A stretch of 64,000 nucleotides of DNA from a virus (lineage: Duplodnaviria; Caudoviricetes). The stretch is from the IMG/VR virus record IMGVR_UViG_3300028833_000112, positions 1 through 64,000 of that record. One strand, given 5' to 3'. This document shows, piece by piece, positions 404 through 30,479 of the stretch (positions are counted from its first letter, which is position 1; every line of letters starts with the position of its first letter). The notes beneath the pieces were generated by a model, which was given only the letters and a program-made list of their open reading frames with translations, ran no database searches and had not been told where the DNA came from. The position numbers were made by a program, and so were the translations under genes.

Positions 404-3400
404 GTGGCAGGCAGGACAATCGAAATCGACGTAATTTTGAATGACAAGACAAACGGAAAAGTCAAAGGTATTCAAAAAGATTTGCAAGCGTTAGACAAGC
501 AAGCCGAGCGGCTGAATCAGCGAATCAAAGCGGTTGGTCTGCAGAAGTTCGCGGCGACACTCAGGCTCATCGACAAAGTTTCTGACCCCGCCTCCCGAAT
601 CAATTCTTTGCTGAAGAAAATCGCGGGCGGCACCTACCGAGTCACCATGCGCATAAATGATTCGGCACTCGCGGGCATTCGCAAAATCGAATCGGCTTTG
701 CTCCGAATCAGCGGGCGCGCGTGGAGTGTCGCGGTGAACGTCAAGGGCGCGGCGATGAATAAACTTAACGGCATGATGAGCGGCGCGCTAATGGGTGCGG
801 GAGTCTTCGCGCCGATGGCAGGCATGATGGGCGTCGGCTACGGCGTCGGCAATGCAATTTCTTCGGCGGCGAGCTTTGAGCAACAGATGTCCAAGGTGCA
901 GGCGATTCGCCAGCTCAGTAAAGATTCGGCGGAGATGAAAGCACTCACTCAGCAGGCAAAAGATTTGGGCATGCAGACCGCTTGGACTCGACAGCAAGTC
1001 GGCGAAGCACAATACTATCAAGCACTTGCAGGCTGGGAGACCCCGCAAATTTTAAAAGCGACTCCACACATGCTGAACTTGGCGAGCGCGGGTGGAATGG
1101 ATTTGGGCGCGGCGTCCGACATGCTCACAGACGCGATGACTGCACTGGGTATTAAAGCCACTGACCGTTTCCAAAACGCGCAAGGCAAATGGATTGATGA
1201 ACCCGAATATTTTGCTGACATGTTCGCGAAGGTGCAGGCGGTCTCGAACACTGATTTGTATCAGCTGAAAGAGGCGACCAAGTACAGCGCGTCGACAATC
1301 GGGACAATGTTCGCGAATATCGGCGGACAGGAAGGCGTGCAAGCTCGGACGGAAGCCGCGCGACAAATGTTGATTATGGCAGGGCTCATGGCGAACGCCG
1401 GGATAAAAGGTTCCATGGCGGGCACGGGCATTAACACAATCTTCAACCGTCTGGCGGGCGAAAACCGCAACACTCACTTCGCTGAAAGACTTCTCGGCTT
1501 GGAGCACGCGTCGGAGAACGGGAACATGCTTATGCCGCTCGATTTTATCAAGGCGTTCAGAAATAAAATTCAAGGCGGCATGAGTGTTGATGACTTCTTG
1601 CAGGTCGCGGAAGAATTGTCGGGCGAAAAGATTCACGCGGACACGAGACGCAAAATTAATTCGACGATTGAGAACGCGCTGAAGAACGGCGGCAAGCTCG
1701 GAAGCTCTGACATGCTCAAAATCGGCTCCATGATGGCGGGACTTGAAAACGCCCCGAAGCTCATGGCAATGGTTTTCCAAGATATTGAGGCGTTGGAAGC
1801 CAAAATGAATAACGTCGAGGGCACGGCGGGACAAATGGCTGAAACCATGCTTGATAACCTTGCGGGTTCGTTTACAAAACTCGGCTCAGCTTGGGACGCC
1901 TTTCAGCAGGATTTGTTCACGGGCACGGCGGGCGACGGCTTAAGAAATTTCGTCGACGCATTGACTGAAATTTTGACGCGCGCGAATAATCTTTTTAAGG
2001 ACGGAATTGACATCGCTGACTTCGGCAAAATTATCGGCGACGTGGTCGGGCGGCTGAAAGATAAAGTCATGGAGCTTGACGGCATTGGAAGTATGCTCGC
2101 GGGCGGCGCGCTTGTCATGGGCTTGAAGAAAATTATTTCGCTCGGACAAAGTGCGCTGAACGTATTCAAAGGCGTGGGCGCGGCAGGGGCAACTGCTCTC
2201 GGCGGGACGGCGGCTAAAGGCGCGGCAGGTGCGGCGGCGGGCATGAGCGTTTCAACCATGAACGTTAAAGCCGGAGTCGTTAATCTTGCGGGCGCGGTCA
2301 AAGGCGGCGGCGGAGGAGTAGCGGGCACGGCGGGCAAAGGCGCGGCGGCTTTAACTCCCGTTGCACTCGCGCAACAAAATCTCGCCAAAGCGCGTGCGGC
2401 TCAAGATACGGCACTTGCGGCGGCATGGGCGGCTCCCGGCGTTGCGTGGCGGCAATCTGCTTTGCGCATGGCTCAAGCTCGAACTGCTCAGGCGGAGACT
2501 GCTCTGGTCAATGCGCGGGTCGCGGCTTACAACGAACAAATTGCCAAACAGAAACAAGCACTTGCACTTGCGCGTGAGGAATCGGCGGTTACTTCAAGAT
2601 TCGCGGGCATGAAGTCTGCAGCGGGCGGCGCGGCTGCTTTTGCGGGATTATTTTCTTTGCTCGACGTGATGAGTCTTAAATCGGCGAATGCAGAAAGATT
2701 GGCGGCGGCACCTGAGGAACAGCGCGCACAAATCGCTCGTGAGAATCGCAAAGCCGAATGGGAAGCAAGCGTCGGAGGATTGGGCTCAGTCGTCGGTGCG
2801 GCGGCGGGCGCGGCTCTCGGTTCTATGATAGGACCCATGGGCACGATGATTGGCGGCATTATCGGTAGCGTTATCGGAGAAAAGCTCGGCAGGTTTGCGG
2901 GTGAGGAAGGTGCGGAGCGTGAAGTCACACGCACTTCAAATGTCAGCCAAGATGAAATTAGGAAACGCGTTGCGGGTTATAAATCTGAAACGCCACCGGA
3001 TTATTCATTCGGGCAAAAGCCGGTACAAACCAATTTTGACGAATACGGAGACTTGTTCACTGCGGGCAGGCGTATGAGTCACAATTTGGCTACCGTGACG
3101 ACGGCGACAGCAAAAACGATAGAAGATTACGGCGTTGCGTTGGAAAATGAATTGGCGGCAAAAAAAGCAGCCGAAGACCTTGCTTGGGCAAAAAGCCGTG
3201 ACTTTACTTTTCAATGGCAAGGACAAAATTCCGCGTTTGAATATTATCAGCAACGCGCGGCGGAAATGGCGGCGAATCCTGCCAATTTCATTCAGCCTAA
3301 GTGGGGCAACGTTGCTCACGCGGCTGAACTCAACGAAGAACAGATGGCGCAAATGGCGGCGATGGAGGGCGGCACGGTTGCAAGTAAAGTTGCGGCTCCG

Positions 3401-4342
3401 TTCACATTGCCTGAAGCTGGCATGCCGCCCGAAATGCCGGATATCACCTCCATGACCGAACAAATTTATTCCGACCTTGAGGCATTGCAGGAAGGAGTCA
3501 GCGAAGTCTTTAGCGGATTCGGCGAGCAGATAACCGAACAGCTGACCACTGCCTTTGAAGGTGTCGGAGAAATTTTCGCCAATTTCGGCACGACAATCAC
3601 CGAGGGGCTCACGACGACTTTCACGGGCGCGGGCGAACAGTTTGCGCAATTCGGCACGATGATTAGCGAGGGCATGACGAGCGCACAGACGGCAGCCGAA
3701 TCGTCCATGACGGCAATTCAAACGACGTTCACGACGACGAAGGACACAATTCAAGCGGCATGGGGTGAACTGCCGGGGTTCTTCGCGAATGTGTTCAGCG
3801 GACTTGGTGGTGCGGCGTCGGCAGCAGGCGCGGCAATAGAAGCGGGGCTCACGGCTCCTATCGGCTCAATCATCGGCGCATGGCAAGGTGCGGCAGCTCA
3901 AATCAGCTCAATAATCAGTTCAATCAGCGCACAGGCGGCGGCCATGCCGAGTATACCCACGGGCGGCGGAAATATCCCTGCACATGCTGAAGGCGGCTTT
4001 ATCACTTCGCCTGAACTTGCACTCATCGGTGAAAAAGGTGCCGAATTAATTTTGCCGCTTACTGATAAAGAACGTTCGCGAGAACTTTTGCGGCAGGCGT
4101 CGGGCGTGCTCGGTTTGAACTCGGAGGAGGACGGCTACTCGATTAGCGGCGGCTCATCGGGCGGCGGCTCAATGTCCGTGTCCGTCGGAGGAATCACCGT
4201 GAACTTTGAAATCAACGGCTCCGATTCGACAGACATCATGGAGGCAATCAAAGGAAATATTCAAGAGATTGGCGACAAAGTTGCCGCTCAAATTTCTAAG
4301 TCGGTCGGAAATATTTTCCAAAATCAAATGGTCGTCGCGTGA
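404..4342 (+). CDS. Tail tape measure protein (TP901 family)
   Basis: 1312 aa, Ala/Gly-rich; FEQQMSKVQAI...AKDLG...ASDMLTDAM...GIKGSMAGT core; C-terminal HAEGG..ALIGEKGAE motif. Confidence 0.95.
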   Translation: MAGRTIEIDVILNDKTNGKVKGIQKDLQALDKQAERLNQRIKAVGLQKFAATLRLIDKVSDPASRINSLLKKIAGGTYRVTMRINDSALAGIRKIESALLRISGRAWSVAVNVKGAAMNKLNGMMSGALMGAGVFAPMAGMMGVGYGVGNAISSAASFEQQMSKVQAIRQLSKDSAEMKALTQQAKDLGMQTAWTRQQVGEAQYYQALAGWETPQILKATPHMLNLASAGGMDLGAASDMLTDAMTALGIKATDRFQNAQGKWIDEPEYFADMFAKVQAVSNTDLYQLKEATKYSASTIGTMFANIGGQEGVQARTEAARQMLIMAGLMANAGIKGSMAGTGINTIFNRLAGENRNTHFAERLLGLEHASENGNMLMPLDFIKAFRNKIQGGMSVDDFLQVAEELSGEKIHADTRRKINSTIENALKNGGKLGSSDMLKIGSMMAGLENAPKLMAMVFQDIEALEAKMNNVEGTAGQMAETMLDNLAGSFTKLGSAWDAFQQDLFTGTAGDGLRNFVDALTEILTRANNLFKDGIDIADFGKIIGDVVGRLKDKVMELDGIGSMLAGGALVMGLKKIISLGQSALNVFKGVGAAGATALGGTAAKGAAGAAAGMSVSTMNVKAGVVNLAGAVKGGGGGVAGTAGKGAAALTPVALAQQNLAKARAAQDTALAAAWAAPGVAWRQSALRMAQARTAQAETALVNARVAAYNEQIAKQKQALALAREESAVTSRFAGMKSAAGGAAAFAGLFSLLDVMSLKSANAERLAAAPEEQRAQIARENRKAEWEASVGGLGSVVGAAAGAALGSMIGPMGTMIGGIIGSVIGEKLGRFAGEEGAEREVTRTSNVSQDEIRKRVAGYKSETPPDYSFGQKPVQTNFDEYGDLFTAGRRMSHNLATVTTATAKTIEDYGVALENELAAKKAAEDLAWAKSRDFTFQWQGQNSAFEYYQQRAAEMAANPANFIQPKWGNVAHAAELNEEQMAQMAAMEGGTVASKVAAPFTLPEAGMPPEMPDITSMTEQIYSDLEALQEGVSEVFSGFGEQITEQLTTAFEGVGEIFANFGTTITEGLTTTFTGAGEQFAQFGTMISEGMTSAQTAAESSMTAIQTTFTTTKDTIQAAWGELPGFFANVFSGLGGAASAAGAAIEAGLTAPIGSIIGAWQGAAAQISSIISSISAQAAAMPSIPTGGGNIPAHAEGGFITSPELALIGEKGAELILPLTDKERSRELLRQASGVLGLNSEEDGYSISGGSSGGGSMSVSVGGITVNFEINGSDSTDIMEAIKGNIQEIGDKVAAQISKSVGNIFQNQMVVA

Positions 4343-8461: not shown

Positions 8462-9634
8462 ATGGTTGTTCTGACTGATTTCGCCGAACGCGCTTTGAAA
8501 AGAATCACGCCGATGTATGAGAACAGTGAATTCATTCAAGAATTTTTCAACGGCATTTCCTTCGACGACGTGCGCGCGTATTTCAAAACTCTCCGCGAGC
8601 AAAGTTTCATTCAGACGGTTGATTGGGGCATTGAGACGCAAGAACACAAATATTCTTTGGAGCCGCGACCCGATTTAACTTTGGAGCAAAGGCGCGCGCG
8701 CTTGGGTATCAAAGCTGCCGTCCACCGCCCGCTGAATCCGAAAATTTTGGAGCAGGCGATAAAAGATTATTACGGGCTGGAGACTTACCTTTTCGAGGGC
8801 GACCCCGGCTTTATTTGGCTCTGCGCCAATTACATGACCGAGGACGGCTTTAACGGCATTATTGAATTTTTGGAGACGGAAAAGCCCGCGCATTTGGGCT
8901 TGAAAGTTTTATTCAATTTTGAAGAGTATACAGGCGGCAAAGTTGACGACATGGAGCCGCGGATTTTTGCGGGCGTGGCGATTGATGATTACGGCGAAAC
9001 CAAAATTGATTTGCCGAAGCCTGACAATGCGCTCGTGAATTTGCGGGTATCGACGGGGCAATTTGTCGAAGGTCAGATAAAAATTTATCCCGCGCTGCCT
9101 GACGACGTTTTGCTTAAACCATACGCGGGCGTCGCGTTGAACGTCGAGGGAGAAATTACAATCGGCTGCCAAAAAGTTTACATACCTTACTCGCCAAATC
9201 TGCCCGTGATTTATCCGCCCGACTCTCCGATTGTCATCCCGCCCGAAAATCCGCTCGACCCGCTTCCCGAATACAAACCGCCTGCCGAACCCGAAGTTCA
9301 AGAATATTATTTCTTGGAGAATCCGATTGCACAGCTCGCCATCGCGGACAAGACGATTGCACGCGGCGCAGAAAATTTTATCACGCCGATTGATGAAATT
9401 GATTCGATTGAATATGACACCGTGAAATTATTTTTTAACTTCCCGATTTCAAAGCACAGGCGCGTGAGAGGTGTCGCCATGCAGAACGCGCGAAACGATT
9501 TGACCGAAAAAGAAATTCAAGCGGTCGGGCAATACGCCGTGGATAACAAATTAATCACGAACACTGCGGGCGAATTGGCTTCGAGTGTGACGAAAGCCGC
9601 GCTTAAAACCCGTGAGGTTACTCAAATTTTCTGA
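8462..9634 (+). CDS. XkdU/YmfQ-like baseplate wedge protein with Pro-rich linker and C-terminal DUF2922-like domain
   Basis: TVDWGI..E..Y.L...LEQRRAR...KPAHL N-domain, then short beta repeats, PPDSPIVIPPENP linker and extra ~75-aa domain. Confidence 0.8.
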   Translation: MVVLTDFAERALKRITPMYENSEFIQEFFNGISFDDVRAYFKTLREQSFIQTVDWGIETQEHKYSLEPRPDLTLEQRRARLGIKAAVHRPLNPKILEQAIKDYYGLETYLFEGDPGFIWLCANYMTEDGFNGIIEFLETEKPAHLGLKVLFNFEEYTGGKVDDMEPRIFAGVAIDDYGETKIDLPKPDNALVNLRVSTGQFVEGQIKIYPALPDDVLLKPYAGVALNVEGEITIGCQKVYIPYSPNLPVIYPPDSPIVIPPENPLDPLPEYKPPAEPEVQEYYFLENPIAQLAIADKTIARGAENFITPIDEIDSIEYDTVKLFFNFPISKHRRVRGVAMQNARNDLTEKEIQAVGQYAVDNKLITNTAGELASSVTKAALKTREVTQIF

Positions 9635-11186: not shown

Positions 11187-13436
11187 ATGGCATTTAATAT
11201 CGGGAAAGCAAATCCGTTTTCGGGCAACGGCGGTTACGGCTTGGGCGATTACGGCGGCTTGCACCCTCAGGGGAGCGGACGAATTATTAACAGCTATGCG
11301 CAAATAACGAACATTACCGCAAGCACGCCCGATAATTTTAATAAAGTCACAATCGGAGCCACGTACTTAACTACAAATGAAAAATGGCCTGCTCCTTTTG
11401 CCGCGAACACTGAAGTTTTGGTTCACGTCGCGGCCATTAATAAATCGGGCGTTGCTGAAGATGTTCGCCGCGGACGCTGGCAGGTGTGCAGAATAACCGA
11501 GCGAAGTTCGACCACTACAAGCAACGGCTTGGTGCTCACGCTCAATAAAAATCTCAAAAAAGTTTTTCTCGACAGCGGCAACGGATTCGAAGGTTTGTAC
11601 ATTCAGCTGGTGTCCATCCCAAATTTCAAGGACGTCATTCTCGACAGCGGTTGTTCAATTACTTGCCCTGTATTTTCTGCGGGCAACGGTTACGGCGGAG
11701 TCGTGGCGTTCAAAAGCTCAGGCACTTTGACATTTAACGGCGGGCATATCGACGTGGCGGAGAAAGGCATACAAAGTTCGGACGCGACAGCTTTGTGGAG
11801 CAACTCACGCGTGCCCACAGAGGACTGCACCAACGATATTGTTTACAGATACGTCGGCTGGGAAAATTATCGCGCGGTTTATCATCTGCCGCTTAATTAT
11901 CCCGGCGGTGTCGTCTTTGCTCTGGCGAAAAATATGGTGTGTCACGCCGACAGTCGAATCGGCAATCCGAGCCAAACGGGTGTCGCACGTGAACGCGGTG
12001 CCAATAATAATTTGGCGGGCGGCTCCTCTATCTTGCTCGCCGCGGAAAATATTTCGGGCTGGGCACCTGCCATGCTCGCCAAATATCCTACGTCCAAAAA
12101 CAGTAATTATCGCGGGCTCAATCGTTGTTACGTCGCGACTGAAACCACTTTGCCGACGGATGAAGGGCTTTACGCGCTCGATTGCATTTCGGATACCACG
12201 CGCATGGCGGAAACTTTTAACCTCAGTGATATTCAATTCGGCAGCGGCAAAGACGGCGACCGAACGAATTACACTGACCAGCTCAACAGTTACGCGGCGG
12301 TGACAAATGTAAAAAGCAATAACCAATTTGATATTGACGTGAACAATATAAAAAACGGTGGGCTCGCAACGCTTGAAGTCGGGGCTCTTGTGCTTATTCA
12401 TGCGTCGCCGAAGTCAACTTGGTACAAAGAGACGGGGCGGTGCATGTTCTCCAAAATCACGAACTACGCGAACGGTGTCATTACCATTGAGGACGAATTT
12501 TTAGGCATTGACGGCGCGTCACTCGAAACAAAACATTATTACATTCAAATAATCGCCGTGCCGCAGTTCAATAATTTTACTCTGGCAACAGTAACTTATC
12601 CGGCACCTGCGTTCAGTAATGGTTGCGGGGGCATTGCGGCTATCGCGGTCAGCGGCAACTGCAATTTATCGGGCGGCAAAATCCTTGTTGAGAAGTGCGG
12701 CATTTCAGCGAAAGCTTACGGCTCCAGCGGATTAAACTACGTCGGCAATGCGCAAATGTCTAAACGCCTCCCGCTCGGTCAAGGGCATGGTTCCGTGCTC
12801 ATTCTCGCAAAAAATTTAACAATGAACACGGACACTCGAATCGGCTCAAGTTTTACGGGCAACAATCTTAACGGGTTGAATTTCCGTCAGAGTAATATGG
12901 ACGGCACTGAGGTAACTGCAGGGCAACCGTGGTCGGCAGGAACAATTTTTGATGAGTATATAACGAGCCGCAGTAAAAGCTACTTCGGCTTCGGCGAGGC
13001 AGGCGGCGGCGACCGCGGCGGCAAAATCTATGGTTACACCACAGGCGCAGGAGGTTACGGCTCCAATTCCGCTGCTTCGACCGCCAAAACTGACGTCGGT
13101 TATCAAGGCGCGCACGTCCTCATCATTGCCGACAAAATCACGGGCTTTTGCATTGACGCAATTTCGACAGGCGGTTCAGGCGGCAATACTTATACTTATA
13201 AGTTGGCTACATCTGTTGGCAATCAAGGCTCGGCAGGCTGCGGCGGTGCAAGTTACGGTGGAGCAGGCGCAAGTTATCTAAGTTTCCGAGGCGGCAACGG
13301 CGGTTTCATCGGCGGCGGCGCGGGCTGCGGCACCGATATGGATTACAGTGCAGGCGGAGGCGCGGGCGGCTTCGCGTTCGTCTACTGCAATGAAATTTCC
13401 AAACAAAATACAAACGGCATTTCTCTTGAGCGATAA
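11187..13436 (+). CDS. Gly-rich tail fibre/receptor-binding protein with internal duplication
   Basis: Two homologous halves (NSYA...IQ.V.(I/V)P.F...GG.....SG.....GG.I...AKN......RIG) and Gly-rich C-terminus. Confidence 0.7.
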   Translation: MAFNIGKANPFSGNGGYGLGDYGGLHPQGSGRIINSYAQITNITASTPDNFNKVTIGATYLTTNEKWPAPFAANTEVLVHVAAINKSGVAEDVRRGRWQVCRITERSSTTTSNGLVLTLNKNLKKVFLDSGNGFEGLYIQLVSIPNFKDVILDSGCSITCPVFSAGNGYGGVVAFKSSGTLTFNGGHIDVAEKGIQSSDATALWSNSRVPTEDCTNDIVYRYVGWENYRAVYHLPLNYPGGVVFALAKNMVCHADSRIGNPSQTGVARERGANNNLAGGSSILLAAENISGWAPAMLAKYPTSKNSNYRGLNRCYVATETTLPTDEGLYALDCISDTTRMAETFNLSDIQFGSGKDGDRTNYTDQLNSYAAVTNVKSNNQFDIDVNNIKNGGLATLEVGALVLIHASPKSTWYKETGRCMFSKITNYANGVITIEDEFLGIDGASLETKHYYIQIIAVPQFNNFTLATVTYPAPAFSNGCGGIAAIAVSGNCNLSGGKILVEKCGISAKAYGSSGLNYVGNAQMSKRLPLGQGHGSVLILAKNLTMNTDTRIGSSFTGNNLNGLNFRQSNMDGTEVTAGQPWSAGTIFDEYITSRSKSYFGFGEAGGGDRGGKIYGYTTGAGGYGSNSAASTAKTDVGYQGAHVLIIADKITGFCIDAISTGGSGGNTYTYKLATSVGNQGSAGCGGASYGGAGASYLSFRGGNGGFIGGGAGCGTDMDYSAGGGAGGFAFVYCNEISKQNTNGISLER

Positions 13437-13438
13437 TC

Positions 13439-13469
13439 GGAGGGGCGGGCGACCGTCCCTTTTAATTTT
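13439..13469 (+). terminator. Intrinsic terminator-like hairpin
   Basis: AGGGGCGG-GCGA-CCGTCCCT followed by TTTAATTTT. Confidence 0.7.
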
Positions 13470-13495
13470 CCTTTTCATAAGAGGAGGCACGGGGG
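13467..13495. repeat. 29-bp inverted repeat, left arm
   Basis: TTTCCTTTTCATAAGAGGAGGCACGGGGG; exact reverse complement of 14784-14812. Confidence 0.97.
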
Positions 13496-13518
13496 CTCTT
13501 CCGAAAGGAGATTACATT

Positions 13519-13737
13519 ATGGCTTACGTTTTTAACATCAAGCAGTGCGCCACGCTCAAAGGTAAGTCCGCTTACGGCGAATCGCTTACTCTTCCCGGCG
13601 TGACCACCGCGAACATCACGCCTCAGCAAGCCGCCGAGCAAGCCAACAAAATTCTTGCCATTGGCGGCAAAACTATCCTCGCGGACAGAACCATGACCCG
13701 CGTGCAGACGGAGGAGGTCATTGGCGATGGCGAATAA
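13519..13737 (+). CDS. Small cassette protein 1 (72 aa; weak DUF1659/DUF2922-like pattern)
   Basis: AAAGGAG RBS; ESLTLPGVTTANITPQQAAEQANKIL...MTRVQTEEV. Confidence 0.7.
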   Translation: MAYVFNIKQCATLKGKSAYGESLTLPGVTTANITPQQAAEQANKILAIGGKTILADRTMTRVQTEEVIGDGE

Positions 13738-14011
13738 TTCTATCAAACTCACGCTCGGCTACGAGGGCACGGACTTCACGCGCAACCTCACTATCGGCGG
13801 CGTGGCTGATTCTGTCGTCAGCGGCGTGAAAGCTAACATCAAAGCCCTGAATGCGTCCATTGTGGGCGGCACCGACGGCGGGCTTTCTACTTTCTTCCGC
13901 GCCGACGATTACGACGAGACCGAGGGCATTGGTACCTTTTCGGGTATCACCGCCGCGACAATCGTCACGACCGAAACCACGCACATTAATCTGGACGAGG
14001 AGGGTGAATAA
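13727..14011 (+). CDS. Small cassette protein 2 (DUF2922-like)
   Basis: GGAGGAGG RBS; IKLTLGYEGTDFTRNLTI...ITAATIVTTETTHI. Confidence 0.7.
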   Translation: MANNSIKLTLGYEGTDFTRNLTIGGVADSVVSGVKANIKALNASIVGGTDGGLSTFFRADDYDETEGIGTFSGITAATIVTTETTHINLDEEGE

Positions 14012-14517
14012 TGGCTACGAAAACTTCACTCGTCATCAACGCGGTCAATGATGGCAAACAAATTCAAAAGACTTTGACCGACATCAACCCCACGGCGGAC
14101 AACGGCGCGCTCAAAGTTTGGGGGCAAATGCTCAACGGGCTCACGACCAACACTTACGTCAAAACCGACCGCATTGACAAAACCAACTGCGACACCTACG
14201 AAACGAAACTCACACCGAACGTCGCGCTCGACCCCGCCGCCGCTGCGCTCACTCGCTCCGCTTGCCTTGTAGGTGCCAGCCCGCTAATCAACATTACCAC
14301 CGACGGCGAACTTTCCATTGTCAACAACGACAATACGACTTGGTGCACGACATTGCGCCTCGGTGCAGATACCGGCAGATATCGTCTCTATATCGGCGTT
14401 ATCAATGAGGCTACAGTAGCCAATGCCACGGCTCCTCATGATATCGTGATTCGTACCACTGAAACCGATAACTACTACGCGGGCGAATTCATTATCACGA
14501 TTAACCCCGATTCCTAA
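14011..14517 (+). CDS. Cassette protein 3: DUF1659-like domain plus C-terminal beta-rich domain
   Basis: TSLVI...DGKQIQKTLTDINPTADNGALKVWGQMLNGLTTNTYVKTDRIDKT resembles the DUF1659 pattern. Confidence 0.7.
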   Translation: MATKTSLVINAVNDGKQIQKTLTDINPTADNGALKVWGQMLNGLTTNTYVKTDRIDKTNCDTYETKLTPNVALDPAAAALTRSACLVGASPLINITTDGELSIVNNDNTTWCTTLRLGADTGRYRLYIGVINEATVANATAPHDIVIRTTETDNYYAGEFIITINPDS

Positions 14518-14530
14518 GGAGGTATGAATC

Positions 14531-14776
14531 ATGGCTGACGTTATCAAAACTCGCGGCGTGCTCCAGTTGGTTGCCGAGTTCACGGACGGCGACGACCGCA
14601 CAATTACTTTGGACAACCCCAAGACTTCACTCACCGCGTCCGCAATTAATTCCGCTTCCGCTTACGCCAAGGCTAACAACCTGATTGTCGGCGATAAGGC
14701 TTCGGCGGGGTTCACGCGTTTCAAGTCGGCAAAGAAGGTTGCGACCACCACTCGTTACCTTGACTTGACCGACTAA
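14531..14776 (+). CDS. Cassette protein 4 (DUF2922-like)
   Basis: LQLVAEFTDGDDRTITLDNPKTSLTASAI...KSAKKVATT resembles the DUF2922 pattern; AAGGAGG RBS. Confidence 0.75.
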   Translation: MADVIKTRGVLQLVAEFTDGDDRTITLDNPKTSLTASAINSASAYAKANNLIVGDKASAGFTRFKSAKKVATTTRYLDLTD

Positions 14777-14783
14777 ACTTTTT

Positions 14784-14812
14784 CCCCCGTGCCTCCTCTT
14801 ATGAAAAGGAAA
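14784..14812. repeat. 29-bp inverted repeat, right arm
   Basis: CCCCCGTGCCTCCTCTTATGAAAAGGAAA. Confidence 0.97.
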
Positions 14813-14823
14813 GGAATGATTTT

Positions 14824-16800
14824 ATGGCTAAAATGCTCGCTTCTCATTCAATGCGTTTCGGCACAGATAATTTCGGCTGGAAAACGGATGCCTCTACAGG
14901 AGCTATTGGAAATTCAACTATCACGGGCGGCGGCTCGAAAAGCACAATTACATCCGATAACGGCACAACTACCATTGCCGACAGCTCGACGTTTACCTTG
15001 AGCACGGGCGGCGGCGGCAGCATTACCGTGACGGATAACGGCAGTGGAACCGTGACAATATCGGGCGGCGGTTCTGAAACGATTGAGGCTTCGGGCGGCA
15101 ACACCGATTATCAATCCATTCAAGACTCTGCCGGGAAAAATATTTTAGTCCAAGGCGCGGGCGGCAGAAATGTTGCCATTTATGTTGTTTTGCCCACAGT
15201 CGACGATGATGGCGACATGATTGACGAAACCGACGGCACGACCAGCTCAAACGGCTCGGCAGTGACCGCGACTTTTTTGAAAACTGCTTTGCTTAAAGGG
15301 ACACATGTCTGGCTCTGCAAAAATAAATCCGCTGTTTTGGGCTTTGACATCAAAGGGCAAAATTATAATTACAACAGCGATGAAATTAAATGCCGATTTG
15401 TTTTCAGGCACAGCGGTGACAGCAGCAAATATTATACTCTTCGCGCTGAGCAAAACCCCGACACAGGGAAAATTGAAGGTAAGCTTTGTGAGTTCAATTA
15501 TCCGATGGGCAATGACACCGACCGCCTCAAAAGTATTTTGGAGCACGGCAATCACGTCGGCGATATTTATACCATTGAAAGTATCCCCGAATTCGTCGGA
15601 TATAATATCTCACCGTTTTACGCGTTGCAGGCTCCATCTAATTCGGTCGTCGTTCCGTCCATTCGACTCGATTTAAAAACCGAAGTGGCGACCAACAACA
15701 ACGTCAAAGTTGTCGAGACCGAAATTTATCCGCTGGCTGTGAGCGGTACTGCGCCCATTGTCACTGACGTCATTATAGATGATGTCAGCGAAAACAATGC
15801 CTCCGTTACCGTGCTCGCACAAACTTTTGATTTGGAAGGTAACGGCTCAGGTTGGAAGTCCATTGACAGTATCATTAACTCTGAAGCTTATTCAATTCAA
15901 TTCCAAATTACCTACAACGTGACTGCCATTAACGGCGACAACATTGCCAAGCTCAATTCGATTTGCGTCAAACACACTTACGGCGAAATTCTTGTCAAGG
16001 GCATGACGTCTGACCTGTACACCGTCGCCAATGATTATGAAGTCCCGTTGCAAATGTGTTATGTGGTTGTTCGCCACGACCGCATTAATGAAGATTCGGA
16101 GATTGAAGCTTACGTGAACTTTATGCGCCCGACTAAACGCAGAGAAATGCTAAATGTGGGTTCGGGCACGGGCGAGCCGCAAGAAATTATCCTTGGCAAA
16201 AACAAAGTTGCCGACCCGAATATTGTCGCTTCCTCCTTGCGGCTTTACGCGACGCGCGCCAGAACCGACGACCCGATTCTTTTGCGCGACGACCAATATT
16301 CTTTCAGCAGCGACACCGGCGTCGTTACCACTACCATATCAAAGAACGTGCCCATTTATGCCAGCTATGATTACGACCATGACGCAGAAGATTGGTTGCC
16401 GATGACTAAAGAAACCACTCAGCCGCTCAATGACGCGGACGGGCGTTATTCCACTCGATTCACTTATGCTTTGCCTGACGCTCAAGCTCAAGGCAAAACC
16501 AAATCGAGTGTGCTCATCCGCTTGAAGCGCAAAACGGGCACCGTCACGAAAAAAACTTTGGGCACGGGCAACACTCACCGTCAAGTTTTCTTGCTCGACC
16601 ACGTCCCCGATGTCAGCACGATTAAATTCGTCAACGAGCTCACCGACAATGAAGATTCTTCAAATCGCTGGAGCTATGACGAAAATTTGAAGACTCTCTC
16701 TGTGTGGGCGGACAAGGGCAAAACCATTATCGTCAGCTACAGCTGGCAGGGCGAAGAATTTAATATTTATTCGGTCGCGTGCGGCTGGAGTATTGCTTAA
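14824..16800 (+). CDS. Tail/structural beta-rich protein
   Basis: 658 aa in the fibre block; Gly/Thr-rich N-terminus; repeated G.G.G..Q...L...SYD.....L..... modules. Confidence 0.65.
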   Translation: MAKMLASHSMRFGTDNFGWKTDASTGAIGNSTITGGGSKSTITSDNGTTTIADSSTFTLSTGGGGSITVTDNGSGTVTISGGGSETIEASGGNTDYQSIQDSAGKNILVQGAGGRNVAIYVVLPTVDDDGDMIDETDGTTSSNGSAVTATFLKTALLKGTHVWLCKNKSAVLGFDIKGQNYNYNSDEIKCRFVFRHSGDSSKYYTLRAEQNPDTGKIEGKLCEFNYPMGNDTDRLKSILEHGNHVGDIYTIESIPEFVGYNISPFYALQAPSNSVVVPSIRLDLKTEVATNNNVKVVETEIYPLAVSGTAPIVTDVIIDDVSENNASVTVLAQTFDLEGNGSGWKSIDSIINSEAYSIQFQITYNVTAINGDNIAKLNSICVKHTYGEILVKGMTSDLYTVANDYEVPLQMCYVVVRHDRINEDSEIEAYVNFMRPTKRREMLNVGSGTGEPQEIILGKNKVADPNIVASSLRLYATRARTDDPILLRDDQYSFSSDTGVVTTTISKNVPIYASYDYDHDAEDWLPMTKETTQPLNDADGRYSTRFTYALPDAQAQGKTKSSVLIRLKRKTGTVTKKTLGTGNTHRQVFLLDHVPDVSTIKFVNELTDNEDSSNRWSYDENLKTLSVWADKGKTIIVSYSWQGEEFNIYSVACGWSIA

Positions 16801-16813
16801 GGAGGCGAACACA

Positions 16814-16966
16814 ATGCCGGTTATCCGTAAACCACTCACCGAGGAGCAAAAGGAAATCCTCAGAAAAAAAGAAAAGCCGTCCGCTGAGGACGTGCAACAG
16901 GCTCAAGACCAATTGTTCATGTACTTGCTGAATAAAGTTGCCGAGCTGGAGGCGAAGCAGCCATGA
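16814..16966 (+). CDS. Small hypothetical protein (50 aa)
   Basis: AAGGAGG RBS; MPVIRKPLTEEQKEIL...KVAELEAKQP; ATGA overlap with next gene. Confidence 0.65.
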   Translation: MPVIRKPLTEEQKEILRKKEKPSAEDVQQAQDQLFMYLLNKVAELEAKQP

Positions 16967-19900
16967 AGCATTATTATCCTTACGCGCCGAACGCGCCGAC
17001 ACCGATTTACGGCGAAGAGCACGTCATTGAGAACGGGCAAATCCTCCTGAATCATATTCCGTTGGCTGACTCGATTGAAATTGAAGGATTCAGGCAAACC
17101 AATTCGGCCGTTCTCGTCGCGAATCAATTTTATTGCGCTTACGGCTCCGAATATTATTATCGCGAGGCAAATTGCATTGTTCGATTCAACGAGCTGCATA
17201 ACGGCGAAACTGTCCGCGTCAAATATCAGCAGGTCGGCACGATTATCACCGCCAATGACATGAACGAAATTAAAGCGCATTTGGAGAGCAGCGACCTGCA
17301 TTCAAGTTTTGTTTTGCCTGCCGCTTCCGCTGAAACGCGCGGCGGAATTCGTGTCGGGCGCGGGCTGAATGTCAGCGACGACGTTCTTTCTGTCGACGAA
17401 GAAATTTCTGCCATTACTCCTGCCACGCGCGACTCACTTGGCGGAATCATGGTCGGCAGTCGTTTGTCAATTACGGATGAGGGTGTACTTTCCGCGGACA
17501 CAATACCCACGGCAACCAACATTCGGCTCGGCGGCGTGGTCGTCGAATCGGACGCAAATATTGCTCGAACGATTGAAAGATATTTTCCCGCGAGCGGGGA
17601 AACTTTGCCCGTTCACACTCAGGCAATCGCCACGCGTAATTCTCTCGGCGTTGTAAAAATCGGCGACGGTCTTTCAATCACCGAAGAAGGTTTACTCACG
17701 GCTGACGCTCAAGATTTTACACTTACCCCGGCGTCGGCTGATTCGCTCGGCGGAGTAAAAATTGGCAGCGGCTTGTCAATCGACGCGAACGGAGTTTTGT
17801 CCGCTGACGCTCAAGATTTTACGTTGACTGCAGCCACGGCTGATTCATTGGGCGGTGTCAAAGTTGGTTCACGTCTCTCGATTGACTCGAACGGAGTTTT
17901 GTCCGCGGACGCGTTGCAAAGCGCAAGCACTTCGCGGCTTGGTGGAGTTGTCGTCGAATCCGACGCGAACATTGCCCGAACGATTGAGCGTTATTTCCCG
18001 TCGGTCACGGCTGATTCAGAAATTTTGCCCGTGCTCTCCTCAATCCCTGCTGCAACTCGTGAATCAATCGGCGGAGTGATTATCGGCAACGGGCTTTCGA
18101 TTACTGAGGACGGATTACTTTCAGCTGACGCTCAAAATTTTACGTTGACTGCGGCCACGGCCGAATCTCTAGGCGGGATTAAGGTCGGCAACTCACTGAC
18201 AATCACGAACGGCGTTTTGAATTATAATCTGCCGAACGCGAGCACCGTAACCAAGGGCGGCGTTGTTTACGCGGCGGACAATGATATCGCAAACACAATC
18301 GAAAGATATTTCCCGTCGGTTACGGCTGACACAGAAATTATCCCGGCGTTGACTTCGATTCCCGTTGCCACGGCTGAATCACTCGGCGGAGTAAAAATCG
18401 GCAACGGCTTATCGATTACCGAGGACGGATTACTTTCGGCGGACGCTCAAAATTTTACGCTCACTCCTGCCACGCGTGATTCGTTGGGCGGTGTGAAAAT
18501 CGGCGCGCGCCTCTCGATTGATTCACTCGGCGTCCTTTCGGCGGACACGGTTCAAACTTACACATTGACTGCCGCAACCTCTGATTCATTGGGCGGCGTC
18601 TTCGTTGAGTCTGACGAAAATATTTCGCGCACGATTCAAAAATATTTCCCGACGGTCAGCGCGGATGAAATTATTCCTGTGCTCACGTCGATTCCTGTTG
18701 CCACAAACGAATCTCTCGGCGGAGTTATCATCGGCGACGGCTTGACGATTTCGGAGAACGGAATTTTATCAGCCGAAGCTCAAACGTTCACGCTCACGCC
18801 CGCAACTCATGACTCGCTTGGCGGGATAAAAGTTGGCGACGGCTTGTCAATTACGGGCGGCGGTGTCCTCACGGCTCTTGCGCAAGATTTTACATTGACC
18901 GCAGCGACCACAAGTTCTCTCGGCGGAGTGAAGATTGAATCGGATGAGAACGTCGCCACCATGATTGAAAATTATTTCCCAAGTGATTGGGAATTTGTCC
19001 CGGCGTTGACGTCGATTCCGCCCGCAACACATGAATCACTCGGCGGGGTTATCGTCGGCGACGGCTTATCAATCACGGACGGCGGTTTGCTTACGGTTGA
19101 TTCGGTTGCGCCTTACACTTTGCCCGCCGCGTCCGCTGACTCTTTGGGCGGAGTAAAAATCGGTACGAGCTTGACTTTCGTCAACAGCGTGCTCGATTAC
19201 AATTTGCCTGTCGCCTCTTCGACCACACGTGGCGGAATTAAAATCGGACGCGGGCTCACGATGACGGGCGAAATTCTTTCAGCCGATGCGCAAGACTTCA
19301 CGTTGACTGCGGCGACCACTGATTCACTCGGAGGAGTGAAGATTGCCGGCGACGCAGAAATTGCCGCCATGATTGAAGAATATTTCCCGACGGTCAGCGG
19401 CGAAACGATTGCTCCGCTGTATTCGATTCCTGCCGCAACTTATGATTCGCTTGGAGGGATTATTCCCGGTGTCACCATGTCCATCAAAGACGGCGTGCTC
19501 GATTACTATCTGCCCACGGCAAGTTCAACTCAGCTCGGTGGCGTGAAAATCGGGCGCGGGCTCACGATAACGGACGGATTACTTTCAGCCGACGCACAAG
19601 ATTTTACGCTCAAGCCCGCGACCACAAGTCAACTCGGCGGAGTAAAAATCGGCGCGCGGCTTTCAATCACCGCAGACGGAATTTTATCCGCCGATTCGGT
19701 TGCGCCCTACACACTGCCCGCCGCCAGCGACGAAGAAATTTCTTCCATGATTGAAGAACATTTTCCCGAATCGCTGACGCCTGAGCCGTTTACATTGCCC
19801 GCCGCCACGAGGACTTCACTCGGCGGGATTATCGTCGGCGACCGCTTGACGATTTCAAATTCGGGCGTCCTCTCCGCGAATGTGCAGTCTTACACCTTGC

Positions 19901-22185: not shown

Positions 22186-23115
22186 ATGTCCGATAATGTT
22201 GTTCTCTCCAAACACTTTGATTCTCTGGCTTCCGCGATTCAGCGTTGCCTCTCGGCAGGGTATGCTCCCACTGCTTACATCCCTGCCGGGCACGAGAGCG
22301 TAATTGATAACGTTGCTTCGACCGTCGATGGCGGCATGTGGTACGAAGTCAACGGCAACATCCCTACTTTGAAAATGCACTACGGCAATCGCGATTATGT
22401 TGTCAATCTCCTTATCAACAACGACGCTTACCTTGTGACCGATTTGAATTTCAGACGCCGCTATGTGATTGACGAGGACACAGGCGAACTTGTTCCGAGC
22501 GGCGGTCAATGCAGTGATTTGTGCGGCGGTACTTGGACGCAATCTTGGAGTGGCGGCGGCATGGATGTTTTCACGGCACCCAACGGCACTCTTTTTTTGG
22601 GCATTGATTTATCGTACAAAGGGTATACATTGACGCAGAATGAGGATTTTAATCTCGGCGGGCAAGACTTCACGATTTCTTTCTGGTATAAACTTGGAGC
22701 CATGGCGAACGGCGAAAGAAAATTCTTTACCATGTACAGCGGTTCAAGCTCTGCCGATTTTGTTATTTACTTCTCCGTCGATTCCACTCGGTCAAGTTTA
22801 CAGCCGGGCGTGAAACTTTTCGGCTCGACCTATTTAAGCGATACCGTAACCACTGCCGTCGAAAACGCTCACTTCGAATTGGATTACGTTCACGAAACAA
22901 ATTCTCTGAAACTTTTCATTAACGGCGAACTGAATTATACAATCTCCCACGCCGTGCCGCTGACAACTTTTAATCCGTTGGTGCTCGGAATCCCGTCCGA
23001 TGATTCGGGCGACAGCACGTCCGGCATTTCCATTGCCGAATTTAAAATTTATAACGGCATTGCACTTCACGCGGATAATTTCACGCCGACTTATACTGCA
23101 TTGAGCGCAAGCTGA
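22186..23115 (+). CDS. Adhesin with C-terminal LamG/concanavalin-A-like domain
   Basis: KHFDSLA N-helix; VDGGMWYE module; LGGQDFTISFW...LKLFING...IAEFKIYNG...NFTP. Confidence 0.8.
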   Translation: MSDNVVLSKHFDSLASAIQRCLSAGYAPTAYIPAGHESVIDNVASTVDGGMWYEVNGNIPTLKMHYGNRDYVVNLLINNDAYLVTDLNFRRRYVIDEDTGELVPSGGQCSDLCGGTWTQSWSGGGMDVFTAPNGTLFLGIDLSYKGYTLTQNEDFNLGGQDFTISFWYKLGAMANGERKFFTMYSGSSSADFVIYFSVDSTRSSLQPGVKLFGSTYLSDTVTTAVENAHFELDYVHETNSLKLFINGELNYTISHAVPLTTFNPLVLGIPSDDSGDSTSGISIAEFKIYNGIALHADNFTPTYTALSAS

Positions 23116-23130
23116 TGAGGAGGCGAGACC

Positions 23131-24087
23131 ATGACTAACGGCACGCATGCAGCACAAAGCAAGCACCTTGATTCACTCGCCGCCGCCGCCAAGCGTTATG
23201 TCCTCTCTGAGATTTTGGACGTGACCACTGCCGTTTCAGCCGAACTCGACAGCATTGCCGACGTTGAATTCATCGAAGGCACGCAGACCGCTTCCACCGG
23301 CGCATGGACGGGCGTCACCAAAGACAGCGCGCTTTACAAAGGCAAAGTCATTATCTACAAACTTCCTTACGCGGGGTCGGGCAACGCGACGCTCAACTTA
23401 ACTCTCGCGGGCGGAACCAAGACCGGCGCGAAAGCTGTTTACCGCTACGGCTCCACGCGCCTTTCCACTCAATACGCCGCAAATTATTACATTCCGCTCA
23501 TTTACAACGGCACTTACTGGTTTGCGCTCGCCGATTACGATGTCAACTACTACGACCGAATCCGCGTCGCCAATGCCATTGCCACTGCTTCGGGCGCGGT
23601 TCAAGCTGTGTGCTTCGTCGGCTCAACCGACGGCACGAACTATAAGCAACTCTCCGCGGGCGCGACCTTCGACGTAACTTATCCCGTCTACTACAACGCC
23701 ACCGCCGTTGCCGACGACGCTGCCATGTCCACGGGCTTGTACTTCGCTATCGGCTCGGTGAATCTTCAAACCGCTATCGGTGACACGACCCGAACTTTCA
23801 CCGCTCAATGTCCCGTCTACCTGAAAGGAACTTTGTCCGGCTCAACCTTCACCGTGCACAGCGATATCCTCACGACCACCGCGCCCACGACCGCCGACGG
23901 CTTCACTTACCTCCGCGTCGGCTTTACTTACGACACCTACCGAGCTTACATTATGCTTTTTGATAATAAATTTTTCGCTTACGTGAACGGCGCGTTCCAA
24001 GAAATTTCGACCGCCATTCCCTTCGTCAGCGATTCCGACGTCAACGTCATGCTCGCGAGTGTTTTCGGCTCCGAGTTTGTTTCTTAA
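23131..24087 (+). CDS. Adhesin/fibre protein with N-terminal KHLDSLA helix and C-terminal SDSDVNVML motif
   Basis: GTQTASTGAWTG...ATLNL...GAKAVY...LIYNGTYW fibre domain. Confidence 0.75.
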   Translation: MTNGTHAAQSKHLDSLAAAAKRYVLSEILDVTTAVSAELDSIADVEFIEGTQTASTGAWTGVTKDSALYKGKVIIYKLPYAGSGNATLNLTLAGGTKTGAKAVYRYGSTRLSTQYAANYYIPLIYNGTYWFALADYDVNYYDRIRVANAIATASGAVQAVCFVGSTDGTNYKQLSAGATFDVTYPVYYNATAVADDAAMSTGLYFAIGSVNLQTAIGDTTRTFTAQCPVYLKGTLSGSTFTVHSDILTTTAPTTADGFTYLRVGFTYDTYRAYIMLFDNKFFAYVNGAFQEISTAIPFVSDSDVNVMLASVFGSEFVS

Positions 24088-24102
24088 CCGAGGAGGGATT
24101 TT

Positions 24103-25473
24103 ATGAACAACGGATTTAATCCCGTCCGCGCCAAACACCTTGAATCAACCGCGAACGTTGCCAAAAGTTTTCTTGCGGCTCAAATTTCGAGCGTGACCGC
24201 TGCCGTGTCCTCCGAACTGGTTAACTTGGACGGCATGACTCTTGATACCGTTCAGCCTGCCGTCAACGGCGCGCTTTGGTATCAGCTCGTCGACGGCGAA
24301 CCGCAACTGCGTATCCATTACGGCGACCACGATTATTCACTCGATAACAGCCCCGGCTTAACCGTCACGCTCAACACCGGCTCAGAAATTTCCTACGGCA
24401 CGCCTGCCACTGCCACGGTTACTTATCGCGGCTCAGGTGTGCTTACCGTTTCGGCGAGTGATTCCAATGTCACGCCCGCTTACTCCGACGGCACGATTAC
24501 AATTCCTTGGGCGGCTGTCACAGGCTCGATTACAATCACTGTCAGTCTTGCCTCCGATGGTACTTACATTGCCGAAGAAAAATCTTTCACCGTCTCCATG
24601 CTCCAAAATAATCCTGAACTGACCGTCACTCCCGCGGCGACCACATTGAATCTTGCGGGCACCACCGCTTCAGTCACGCGCAACGGTTCAGGCGCGATTA
24701 CGGTTTCATCCGATAACGCGGCTGTCACACCCACTGTCAGCGACACGACGATTACGATTCCCTACGCCGTCTTTGATGAGGACACCGACGTTACTTTCTC
24801 CGTGAGTGTTTCGGCTGATTCGGGCTACGCGCCTGACACGAAAACTTTCACCGTCACTTACGTCAGCCCGTGCGTGGTCAACATGCCGTTCACTTCTTCC
24901 GTTACCGAAGATTTGGCGGGTGGCACGTGGACTGCTTCCGGCTCGCCGTCAATTTCAGACAAACAACTTTATTTGAACGGCTCAAGCTATCTGTCCAAGA
25001 GCGGCGGCATTACTCTCGGTGGGAAAGATTTTACTGTTTCTTATTACGTGTTGGGCAATTCGTCATCAAGCACAATCGGGATTTTCTCTTTTACCGCCTC
25101 CGAATCATCCGCTGGTACATATAGGATTTTTTGCTACTTGTGGCACCCCGGCGTAAGCGGAATACACACAGGAATTTGCCTTAATTCAAATACTTACACG
25201 AATGTCGTAGGTAATTTTGGAGGCGCGTTACATCACATTGCTCATGTCTACGAACATAGTAAGTCTACATTTAAAATTTATATCGACGGTGTTTTGAAAA
25301 GCACTCAATCCAACATCTCGCTTTCGCGAACTACTTATCCTTATGCCCGTATCGGTACCTCGCCCAGTTTAAGCGAGGGTAAACTTCAAGGTTACATTGA
25401 CGATTTCAAAGTTTATGACGGGGTGGCGTTGCACACGGCGAATTTCACGCCGCCCGCTCGTTCTTCAACTTAA
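24103..25473 (+). CDS. Adhesin: two Ig-like beta repeats plus LamG domain
   Basis: KHLESTA N-helix; VNGALWYQ module; LGGKDFT...HHIAHVY...IYIDG...GYIDDFKVY. Confidence 0.8.
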   Translation: MNNGFNPVRAKHLESTANVAKSFLAAQISSVTAAVSSELVNLDGMTLDTVQPAVNGALWYQLVDGEPQLRIHYGDHDYSLDNSPGLTVTLNTGSEISYGTPATATVTYRGSGVLTVSASDSNVTPAYSDGTITIPWAAVTGSITITVSLASDGTYIAEEKSFTVSMLQNNPELTVTPAATTLNLAGTTASVTRNGSGAITVSSDNAAVTPTVSDTTITIPYAVFDEDTDVTFSVSVSADSGYAPDTKTFTVTYVSPCVVNMPFTSSVTEDLAGGTWTASGSPSISDKQLYLNGSSYLSKSGGITLGGKDFTVSYYVLGNSSSSTIGIFSFTASESSAGTYRIFCYLWHPGVSGIHTGICLNSNTYTNVVGNFGGALHHIAHVYEHSKSTFKIYIDGVLKSTQSNISLSRTTYPYARIGTSPSLSEGKLQGYIDDFKVYDGVALHTANFTPPARSST

Positions 25474-25485
25474 GGAGGCGATTTT

Positions 25486-26959: not shown

Positions 26960-27529
26960 ATGAAAGGGATTGACGTTTCAGTTTTCAACGAGAATGTCGA
27001 CTGGCAAGCTCTGAAGGACGCGGGCATTGACTTCGCCATCTGCAGGACGGGCTTCGGCAAGAGCGGGCTCGACGAAAACTTCCAACACAACGTCGAGGAG
27101 GCTCACAAGGCGGGACTCATTTGCGGGGCGTATCACTATTCCTACGCGTTGACGCCCTCTGACGCCATTACCGAAGCTCTTTTCTGCAAGCGCATTATCG
27201 CCGAAGCCGGGGTTTTGCTCGAACTGCCCGTGTTCTTCGATATGGAGGACGCAGACGGTTACAAATCTCGCCACGGATTTTCTTTCACTCGACGCAATGT
27301 GACTAACATCTGCCGCGCGTTCATCGATTCAATTAAGCCGCTCGACTGTGGAGTTTATGCCTCTTGCTCGTGGCTGGAAGATTGGATTGACTGGCAATCG
27401 CTTGGTTGCCCCGTGTGGAATGCAGCATGGAGCGGGCATGATGACATCAAAGGATTCTGTTGGCAGTTCACGGACGAAATGCTTATCGGCGGCAAAAAGT
27501 TCGACGGAAATATTTTGTACGGGAGATAA
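26960..27529 (+). CDS. Endolysin, glycoside hydrolase family 25 (catalytic domain only)
   Basis: MKGIDVS...GAYHYS...PVFFDME...GVYA...W.A.W...WQFT. Confidence 0.92.
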   Translation: MKGIDVSVFNENVDWQALKDAGIDFAICRTGFGKSGLDENFQHNVEEAHKAGLICGAYHYSYALTPSDAITEALFCKRIIAEAGVLLELPVFFDMEDADGYKSRHGFSFTRRNVTNICRAFIDSIKPLDCGVYASCSWLEDWIDWQSLGCPVWNAAWSGHDDIKGFCWQFTDEMLIGGKKFDGNILYGR

Positions 27530-29056: not shown

Positions 29057-29299
29057 TTGTCTGCGCCTTGTCTGCACGGCGATAAATTTTCTCCCGAATC
29101 CGACTTCGCTCGTGACAGCAAAACGCCTGCATAATTACGCGATACTCACCTAATTTTTTTCTCCGTCTTGGGAAGTGATTTACCTTGATTTACCTCGGTG
29201 TGTCATGCTTCTCATAAAGATTCAAGTCCTTTCATTGCATAACTGCCGCCGCTTTCAAGAAATTTGTCTGCGCTTTGTCTGCGTCAGTGATTTGTCTGC
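29057..29299. other. Putative attP with integrase arm-type sites
   Basis: TTGTCTGC at 29057, 29068, 29264, 29275 and 29292 (two pairs with 11-bp period) flanking a ~190-bp gap; tandem GATTTACCT pair; directly downstream of integrase. Confidence 0.75.
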
Positions 29300-30474: not shown

Positions 30475-30479
30475 AAGAT

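Follow-up and report, generated by a model that had tools for sequence, protein, structure and literature searches.

A covarying inverted repeat encloses a four-gene cassette in a phage tail operon and may form a long-range RNA helix processed by RNase III

Host RNase III cuts the polycistronic early and late transcripts of phage T7 into separate, stabilised messages, and gene dosage in long phage late operons is usually ascribed to translation signals and local RNase sites. In bacterial rrn operons, leader and trailer sequences form stalks around 16S and 23S rRNA that are cut by RNase III (PMC6582327, PMC6144821). The 23S rRNA of Coxiella burnetii carries an ORF-bearing intervening sequence that is excised by RNase III (PMC4990558). 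Furthermore, long-range intramolecular RNase III targets are documented in mRNAs of Bacillus subtilis (PMC11780869), and the 5' and 3' UTRs of the icaR mRNA of Staphylococcus aureus pair with each other (PMC3868564).

Here we describe a four-gene cassette in the tail operon of a virus of the Caudoviricetes, a prophage of a rumen bacterium. The stretch of DNA analysed, referred to as the window, comprises 64,000 nt (positions 1 to 64,000 of IMG/VR record IMGVR_UViG_3300028833_000112). Within it, the segments 13467-13495 and 14784-14812 lie 1288 nt apart and are complementary at 29/29 positions. The arrangement resembles the rRNA stalks in that complementary segments 1-3 kb apart flank an RNA, form a helix of at least 20 bp, covary and are part of a long polycistronic transcript. 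In contrast to the stalks, the cassette helix encloses the mRNA of four phage tail genes rather than a structural RNA, and its cleavage is a prediction. With the Coxiella-type intervening sequence the cassette shares the character of an optional ORF-bearing insert with a long closing stem and with filled and empty sites; the flanks would likewise be joined by base pairing alone after excision. However, it lies between protein-coding tail genes and not in an rRNA helix, is three times longer, carries four genes unrelated to the S23p family (DUF1659/DUF2922), and its arms are not heptamer arrays.

In the B. subtilis targets and icaR, pairing of mRNA segments hundreds of nucleotides apart gives rise to an RNase III site that affects the fate of the mRNA, as is proposed for the cassette. 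In icaR, however, an anti-Shine-Dalgarno sequence pairs with the Shine-Dalgarno (SD) sequence of one monocistronic mRNA, unlike in the cassette helix, and conserved bracketing of a portable multi-gene cassette is not described for the B. subtilis sites. The T7 sites are local intergenic hairpins, whereas the partners of the cassette helix are 1.3 kb apart and enclose a message. A full-text literature search yielded no description of a conserved, covarying helix that encloses a portable cassette of several genes within a structural operon of a phage.

The cassette and its place in the tail region

The locus belongs to the part of a contractile-tail prophage that encodes baseplate and fibres. 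The features of the locus and its surroundings are as follows.

404-4342: tape measure, first in the order of the region
8462-9634: Mu Gp48-like protein after Baseplate J, ending in a DUF2922 domain
11187..13436, plus strand: upstream tail gene F, 749 aa, no family; directly precedes gene E in cassette-less relatives
13439..13462, plus strand: terminator-like G+C-rich hairpin and T-run abutting the left arm; 10-pair stem followed by TAATTTT, kept in the minimum free energy (MFE) fold
13467..13495, plus strand: 5' arm of the putative long-range helix; outer end A/T-rich, inner end G/C-rich; equivalent position in 27 other loci
13519..13737, plus strand: gene A, 72 aa, conserved small protein without assigned family; in all 28 stem-closed cassettes
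13727..14011, plus strand: gene B, 94 aa, DUF2922-like paralogue of gene D
14011..14517, plus strand: gene C, 168 aa, N-terminal DUF1659 domain; C-terminal part variable in length and sequence
14531..14776, plus strand: gene D, 81 aa, DUF2922 (Pfam E 1.2e-7, above cut-off)
14784..14812, plus strand: 3' arm of the putative long-range helix; outer end reaches into the purine-rich ribosome-binding region of gene E
14824..16800, plus strand: downstream tail gene E, 658 aa, no family; conserved N-terminus ...NTMRFGTD
29284-30498: tyrosine integrase, the sole tyrosine recombinase of the record, about 14.5 kb from the cassette

The tape measure gene is followed by genes for a YqbQ-like hub, a sheath initiator and Baseplate J. 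After the Mu Gp48-like gene come a tail-collar fibre, F, the cassette, E and a 1070-aa fibre with head-fibre repeats. Three Laminin_G_3 proteins, a GH25 lysin and the tyrosine integrase are encoded further downstream.

An initial annotation, made from the letters alone, had described exact 29-bp inverted repeats around exactly four small genes with C-ending codon bias, a left arm abutting a terminator-like hairpin and a right arm overlapping the purine-rich stretch before the ATG at 14824. This description holds in every part. The arms are fully complementary and enclose four ORFs on the same strand; C occupies the third codon position in 46% of cassette codons as compared to 32% in the other tail genes; and both the hairpin with its T-run and the overlap on the right side are present. 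The repeat is also unique. At up to three mismatches, the arm has two copies in the window as compared to 0 in 100 shuffles, and the whole 94,211-base record contains the same two and no more. The next best long-range inverted repeats in a scan of the window are chance pairs of 70-90% complementarity, and no further copy of the arm core was found in IMG/VR. The hairpin at 13439-13462 ends the upstream tail gene F and may, in addition, shield the upstream RNA at its 3' end once it has been processed.

The families of B and D were merged by jackhmmer, and an hhalign comparison of the two gave a probability of 80.7% (E 1.3e-5). The DUF1659 match of gene C (Pfam E 9.8e-5, 22.6 bits) falls slightly under the 24.1-bit cut-off. 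Gene C varies between 67 and 232 aa among the loci, and its segment 14218-14518 is not covered by the contigs of a relative of about 96% identity. A kinship of gene A with the DUF1659 domain of C was considered and is unsupported (hhalign probability 1.8%). The AlphaFold model of gene D has a pLDDT of 90; a fold search with it against the PDB gave no match at E <= 0.001, and a PDB sequence search returned chance matches only. The sole functional report found on the domain pair is a preprint on S. aureus SroA/SroB, a DUF1659/DUF2922 pair that reportedly affects the stability of sigS mRNA (10.1101/2022.10.19.512975). The locus described here links DUF1659/DUF2922 cassette proteins to a myovirus baseplate.

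Conservation of pairing and of the insert

Gene D has 64 homologues of 99-46% identity. Relatives of the locus were gathered with an alignment of gene D from IMG/VR, genome contigs and metagenome contigs. Within a set of Selenomonadaceae genomes, 35/262 contributed loci, and wider flanks were then added. The relatives are carried by genomes of Selenomonadaceae and Selenomonadales from the gut of sheep, goat and deer, and the window sequence itself is present in sheep-gut metagenome runs. GenBank phages gave no DNA match, and IMG/VR gave no relative of E, whether searched with the single protein or with an alignment.

An inverted repeat of 22-53 nt occupies this position in 28 non-identical loci (the window and 27 others). 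Its 3' arm lies 5-101 nt downstream of the D stop codon and the loop measures 1023-1924 nt. One locus (L091) is an exception, with a 3' arm 342 nt past the D stop and a fifth gene after D; a fifth gene inside the loop is shared by L025. The helix is present in every cassette locus that has adjoining E-like or F-like tail genes and a searchable flank. Cassettes or lone D homologues outside the E/F tail context have no helix; these are L011, beside a Rep-like gene, and about 25 other loci.

The arms of the relatives differ in sequence and keep their complementarity. By cross-complementarity they fall into 20 classes that do not pair with one another: each arm scores 19-30 with its own partner, as compared to an off-diagonal median of 5. 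Of the innermost 20 pairs, 98.2% are paired, as compared to 44% (at most 56%) after shuffling of the partners between loci, and 4-6 pair types occur in each column. Moreover, between loci with arms similar enough to be aligned, 36 changes alter both sides of a base pair and preserve the pairing, and a further 16 alter one side to give a wobble pair. Comparison with related phages had been proposed in the initial annotation as a way to separate RNA pairing (complementarity kept, sequence varied) from a recombinase site (sequence fixed). The compensatory double changes and the 20 classes in 28 loci follow the former pattern, which supports an RNA stem.

The arms go with the cassette. Cassette-less F-E junctions (L110/111, L112/113, L114 and L129) have spacers of 0, 15, 26 and 28 nt. 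As these empty junctions are tight and carry no arms, arms and cassette form one unit. The unit also occurs elsewhere: a stem-closed cassette lies between E and an amidase-like gene in L009 and L106, after a sheath-like gene in L108 (the amidase-like and sheath-like genes being named from their N-terminal sequences) and after a divergent gene in L077 and L080.

Both arms are largely located in untranslated spacers, and their distances to the neighbouring genes are constrained. In nearly all loci, 16-28 nt separate the end of the 5' arm from the start of gene A; thus, the SD sequence of A lies just 3' of the helix, and it does so in every case. The next start codon mostly follows the end of the 3' arm by 4-24 nt, and the upstream stop codon mostly precedes the 5' arm by 0-35 nt. 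In four loci, this stop codon lies within the outer part of the 5' arm. The helix is polar, with 76% GC at the inner, loop-proximal end and 38% at the outer end. A hairpin with T-run is found just 5' of the 5' arm in 9/28 loci, and four relatives have a terminator-like hairpin before the 3' arm. The helix itself was also considered as an intrinsic terminator, which was rejected because there is no consistent U-run past the 3' arm.

The overlap of the right arm with the ribosome-binding region of E exists in the window and is not a conserved feature. The perfect arm contains the SD sequence of the downstream gene in the window, and the whole of it in 4/19 loci; in the remaining 15/19 the SD sequence lies outside, and its predicted pairing there (4.13 nt) equals that of a control with shuffled flanks (3.99 nt). 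Masking of the downstream ribosome-binding site was therefore rejected as a conserved function.

RNA-level evidence and a possible processing pathway

The perfect helix of 29-30 bp has a predicted energy of about -58 kcal/mol. Both the MFE and the centroid fold of the 1394-nt RNA from 13437 to 14830 retain this closing helix together with the upstream hairpin. RNAduplex, when applied to long windows, returned meaningless structures with long interior loops, which were not used. Among the loci, mismatches lean towards G.U on the sense strand (25 vs 12, p=0.047), and the duplex energies, added up for 27 loci, are 65 kcal/mol more favourable on the sense strand (Wilcoxon p=0.07). This lean in wobble and energy is weak and suggestive only, and may reflect mutational asymmetry.

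In one sheep-gut metatranscriptome run, retrieved with the query 12800-15500, contigs of 100% identity cover 13501-13691 and 13960-14784. The rest of 11563-17500 is uncovered; the same run has one 186-nt contig far upstream in F, with neither the 3' part of F nor any of E. The covered block thus ends no more than 6 nt from the inner edge of either arm (contig ends at 13501 and 14784). These are a handful of contigs of 2-5x depth from one study, without strand or true ends, and an RNA library can contain DNA; they give a weak hint that cassette RNA outlives or outnumbers the flanking RNA. Uncovered parts in runs X3, X5 and X12 were taken as absence only if contigs from that run ended at the arms. 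The contig start at 13501 also raised the idea of a promoter in the 5' arm, as in a moron model. This was rejected: a consensus promoter scan of the sense strand from 12800 to 15400 found no promoter-like site, the arms of the relatives have no common motif, and in the window a hairpin with T-run lies 4 nt before the arm.

We propose that the two arms pair in the sense transcript of the late (tail) operon and so form a long-range RNA helix. Once transcribed, the 3' arm would pair with the 5' arm 1.3 kb upstream and thereby close the four-gene insert into a loop of the transcript, as the leader-trailer stalks do around 16S and 23S rRNA. Because both arms lie in untranslated spacers, ribosomes on genes A to D would not melt the helix. 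With a length of at least two turns, the helix would be a substrate of host RNase III, and a double-strand cut is its most likely consequence. RNase III (PF14622) was found above cut-off in 5/5 Selenomonadaceae genomes carrying such prophages. The cut would part the cassette mRNA from the messages of F and E, and a duplex stub would remain that clamps both of its ends, 5' and 3'. The small DUF1659/DUF2922 proteins would thereby reach a level independent of that of the flanking tail genes and above it.

It appears quite probable that the helix functions at the RNA level. For the full pathway, in which the helix closes the cassette in the late transcript, is cut by RNase III and yields an end-clamped cassette mRNA, we estimate a probability of roughly 0.55. 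One of two options in the initial annotation had been an RNA stem of this kind, cut by RNase III to release an end-paired or circular mRNA and to damp the downstream gene. Its long-range stem is supported by the conserved pairing, while we infer RNase III cleavage, the clamped ends with an end-paired or circular product, the effect on expression and the downstream damping. Several considerations weigh against the pathway. Concerted evolution of the arms by a DNA-level process would also preserve complementarity. If the terminator-like hairpins work efficiently, transcripts with both arms would be rare, unless terminators are read through in late transcription. Finally, terminating ribosomes would open part of the helix in the four loci with a stop codon inside the 5' arm.

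Alternative readings and wider meaning

The main rival is a helix that acts as RNA without being cleaved. It would loop out the cassette and bring the stop codon of F near the start of E, so that coupling by termination and reinitiation is kept or the folds of the flanking regions are insulated, and the ribosome-binding site of E would additionally be masked in part of the phages. All of the covariation evidence fits such a role equally well. The very tight empty F-E junctions (0-28 nt) also speak for it, as do the short distances from the F stop to the 5' arm and from the 3' arm to the next start codon at filled sites, and the location of the E SD sequence inside the arm in the window and the few loci like it. 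However, this location is not conserved, and the same module is found between E and the amidase-like gene, between the sheath-like gene and its successor and after a divergent gene, where there is no coupling of F to E to be kept. Moreover, a perfect helix of at least 22 bp would be cut by RNase III in any case, and the RNA contigs restricted to the cassette would be left unexplained. We regard a role without cleavage as unlikely.

Two readings at the level of DNA fit the data poorly. The arms might be terminal inverted repeats of a non-autonomous mobile cassette, moved by a transposase or recombinase in trans, and complementarity would then reflect the need for identical ends. This would agree with arms and cassette being one unit, with filled and empty F-E sites and with the occurrence of the same stem-closed cassette at four or more different junctions. 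Yet no transposase is encoded in or beside the cassette, whose proteins are DUF1659/DUF2922 or family-less, and the flanks (TTTTAAT before the left arm and GGAATGA after the right arm) show no target duplication, both as the initial annotation had stated. Furthermore, the record has a single pair of arms, the length of the arms varies from 22 to 53 nt, and their fixed distance to the start codon has no reason in a DNA end. No common motif was found at the outer ends of the 28 arms. As the arms belong to 20 unrelated classes without such a terminal motif, no single enzyme could recognise them. A mobile cassette is thus a highly improbable explanation.

The other option of the initial annotation was a site-specific inversion switch that turns the cassette on or off through an invertase in trans, a role that the phage integrase might also take. 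Such a switch recalls the invertible tail-fibre segments of Mu, P1 and e14, which are flanked by perfect 26-34 bp inverted repeats. The G, C and P segments of these elements share with the cassette perfect repeats of about 30 bp, a length of 1-4 kb and a place in the phage tail region, and the record does encode one tyrosine recombinase. In contrast to the segments inverted by Gin, Cin and Pin, the cassette has no invertase and no alternative genes on the opposite strand, its orientation is fixed and its arms are unrelated in sequence between relatives. It is oriented as its E-like or F-like neighbours in 23/23 loci and inverted in 0/23. A single contig spans both arms in the source sample, and four runs contained no strand-switch joint, although these are contigs from which rare variants can escape. 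No serine recombinase (PF00239) is present in the 94-kb record, which is 87% complete, and no recombinase-sized ORF flanks the cassettes of the relatives. The statement that no invertase lies nearby was thus correct: the sole tyrosine recombinase is an arm-binding integrase 14.5 kb away, near which there is no third or partial copy of the arm. DNA inversion is disfavoured, and we give it the least credence of the readings considered here.

Returning to the RNA helix cut by RNase III, a more far-reaching interpretation can be offered tentatively. The cassette might be the mRNA counterpart of an rRNA intervening sequence, i.e., a portable module whose own closing helix would allow insertion between tightly coupled late genes without disturbing them. 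In the transcript, RNase III would excise the looped-out insert. The outer half of the helix would keep the flanking messages paired, and its inner half would clamp the cassette message. We hold this extension to be possible but rather doubtful.

A conserved helix that spans 1-2 kb around a multi-gene insert would extend the logic of the rRNA stalks to mRNA. It would account for an accessory cassette being inserted between coupled structural genes and still reaching an expression level of its own. A covarying inverted repeat in the untranslated spacers that flank an optional insert provides a signature by which such modules can be searched for, and the 20 natural helix variants of like architecture make the system directly testable.

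Cassette make-up and placement in relatives

The cassette is neither fixed in its gene content nor confined to one position. In some of the stem-closed cassettes, in which the inverted-repeat arms enclose genes A-D, a fifth small gene encodes a coiled-coil protein (MKTQLRSKVAAETKERADKLDDIDKRLAKV...), and its place differs between two relatives' loci:

L091, 3818-4087: fifth gene, coiled-coil protein, after D
L025, 3170-3448: fifth gene, coiled-coil protein, between C and D

At both loci the arms are shifted outward and the extra gene remains enclosed. One prophage in host genome G120 carries two loci on the same contig. At the first (L087), a single D-like gene lacking A-C and the arms sits immediately between the tail genes F and E, and a complete stem-closed A-D cassette (L106), flanked by E and an amidase-like gene, lies ~3.5 kb downstream of it. 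In a Selenomonadaceae MAG (L011, 3994-5237), all of A-D are present and the arms are absent; the neighbours are an rpoB-like ORF on one side and a rolling-circle Rep-like gene on the other. Thus, occurrence of the cassette is not limited to tail operons.

Downstream genes in the window

Further downstream, the window holds the following genes:

22186-26934: three consecutive paralogous Laminin_G_3 proteins (309, 318 and 456/482 aa)
26960-27529: GH25 lysin, next after these paralogues
30480-32048 (-): TerB_N-domain protein, 521 aa

The Laminin_G_3 (concanavalin-like) domains are C-terminal in all three paralogues, which are located downstream of the 1070-aa fibre. The TerB_N gene and the start of the tyrosine integrase gene (29284-30498) overlap.

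DUF2922 and the variable half of gene C

Two further features bear on the cassette proteins:

8462-9634: Mu Gp48-like baseplate protein with DUF2922 at its C-terminal end (domain match)
14218-14518: C-terminal half of gene C, a gap in X5 contig cover

DUF2922 spans residues 338-390 of the Mu Gp48-like protein (E 3.2e-6, above the cut-off). Hence, this small domain occurs in the window in two forms, as free-standing proteins (genes B and D) and as a fusion with a baseplate wedge protein. AlphaFold models protein D (14531-14776) confidently (pLDDT 90) as one helix with three long β-strands packed on it, for which a Foldseek search of the PDB returned no significant match. The two forms of DUF2922 suggest that the products of the cassette are parts attached to the baseplate.

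Contigs of run X5, from a ~96% identical relative, cover both flanks of 14218-14518 and leave this stretch uncovered. Across the 28 stem-closed loci, the gene C product ranges from 67 to 232 aa and retains the DUF1659 N-terminus. A retained N-terminus followed by a variable remainder matches what a swappable specificity domain would show.
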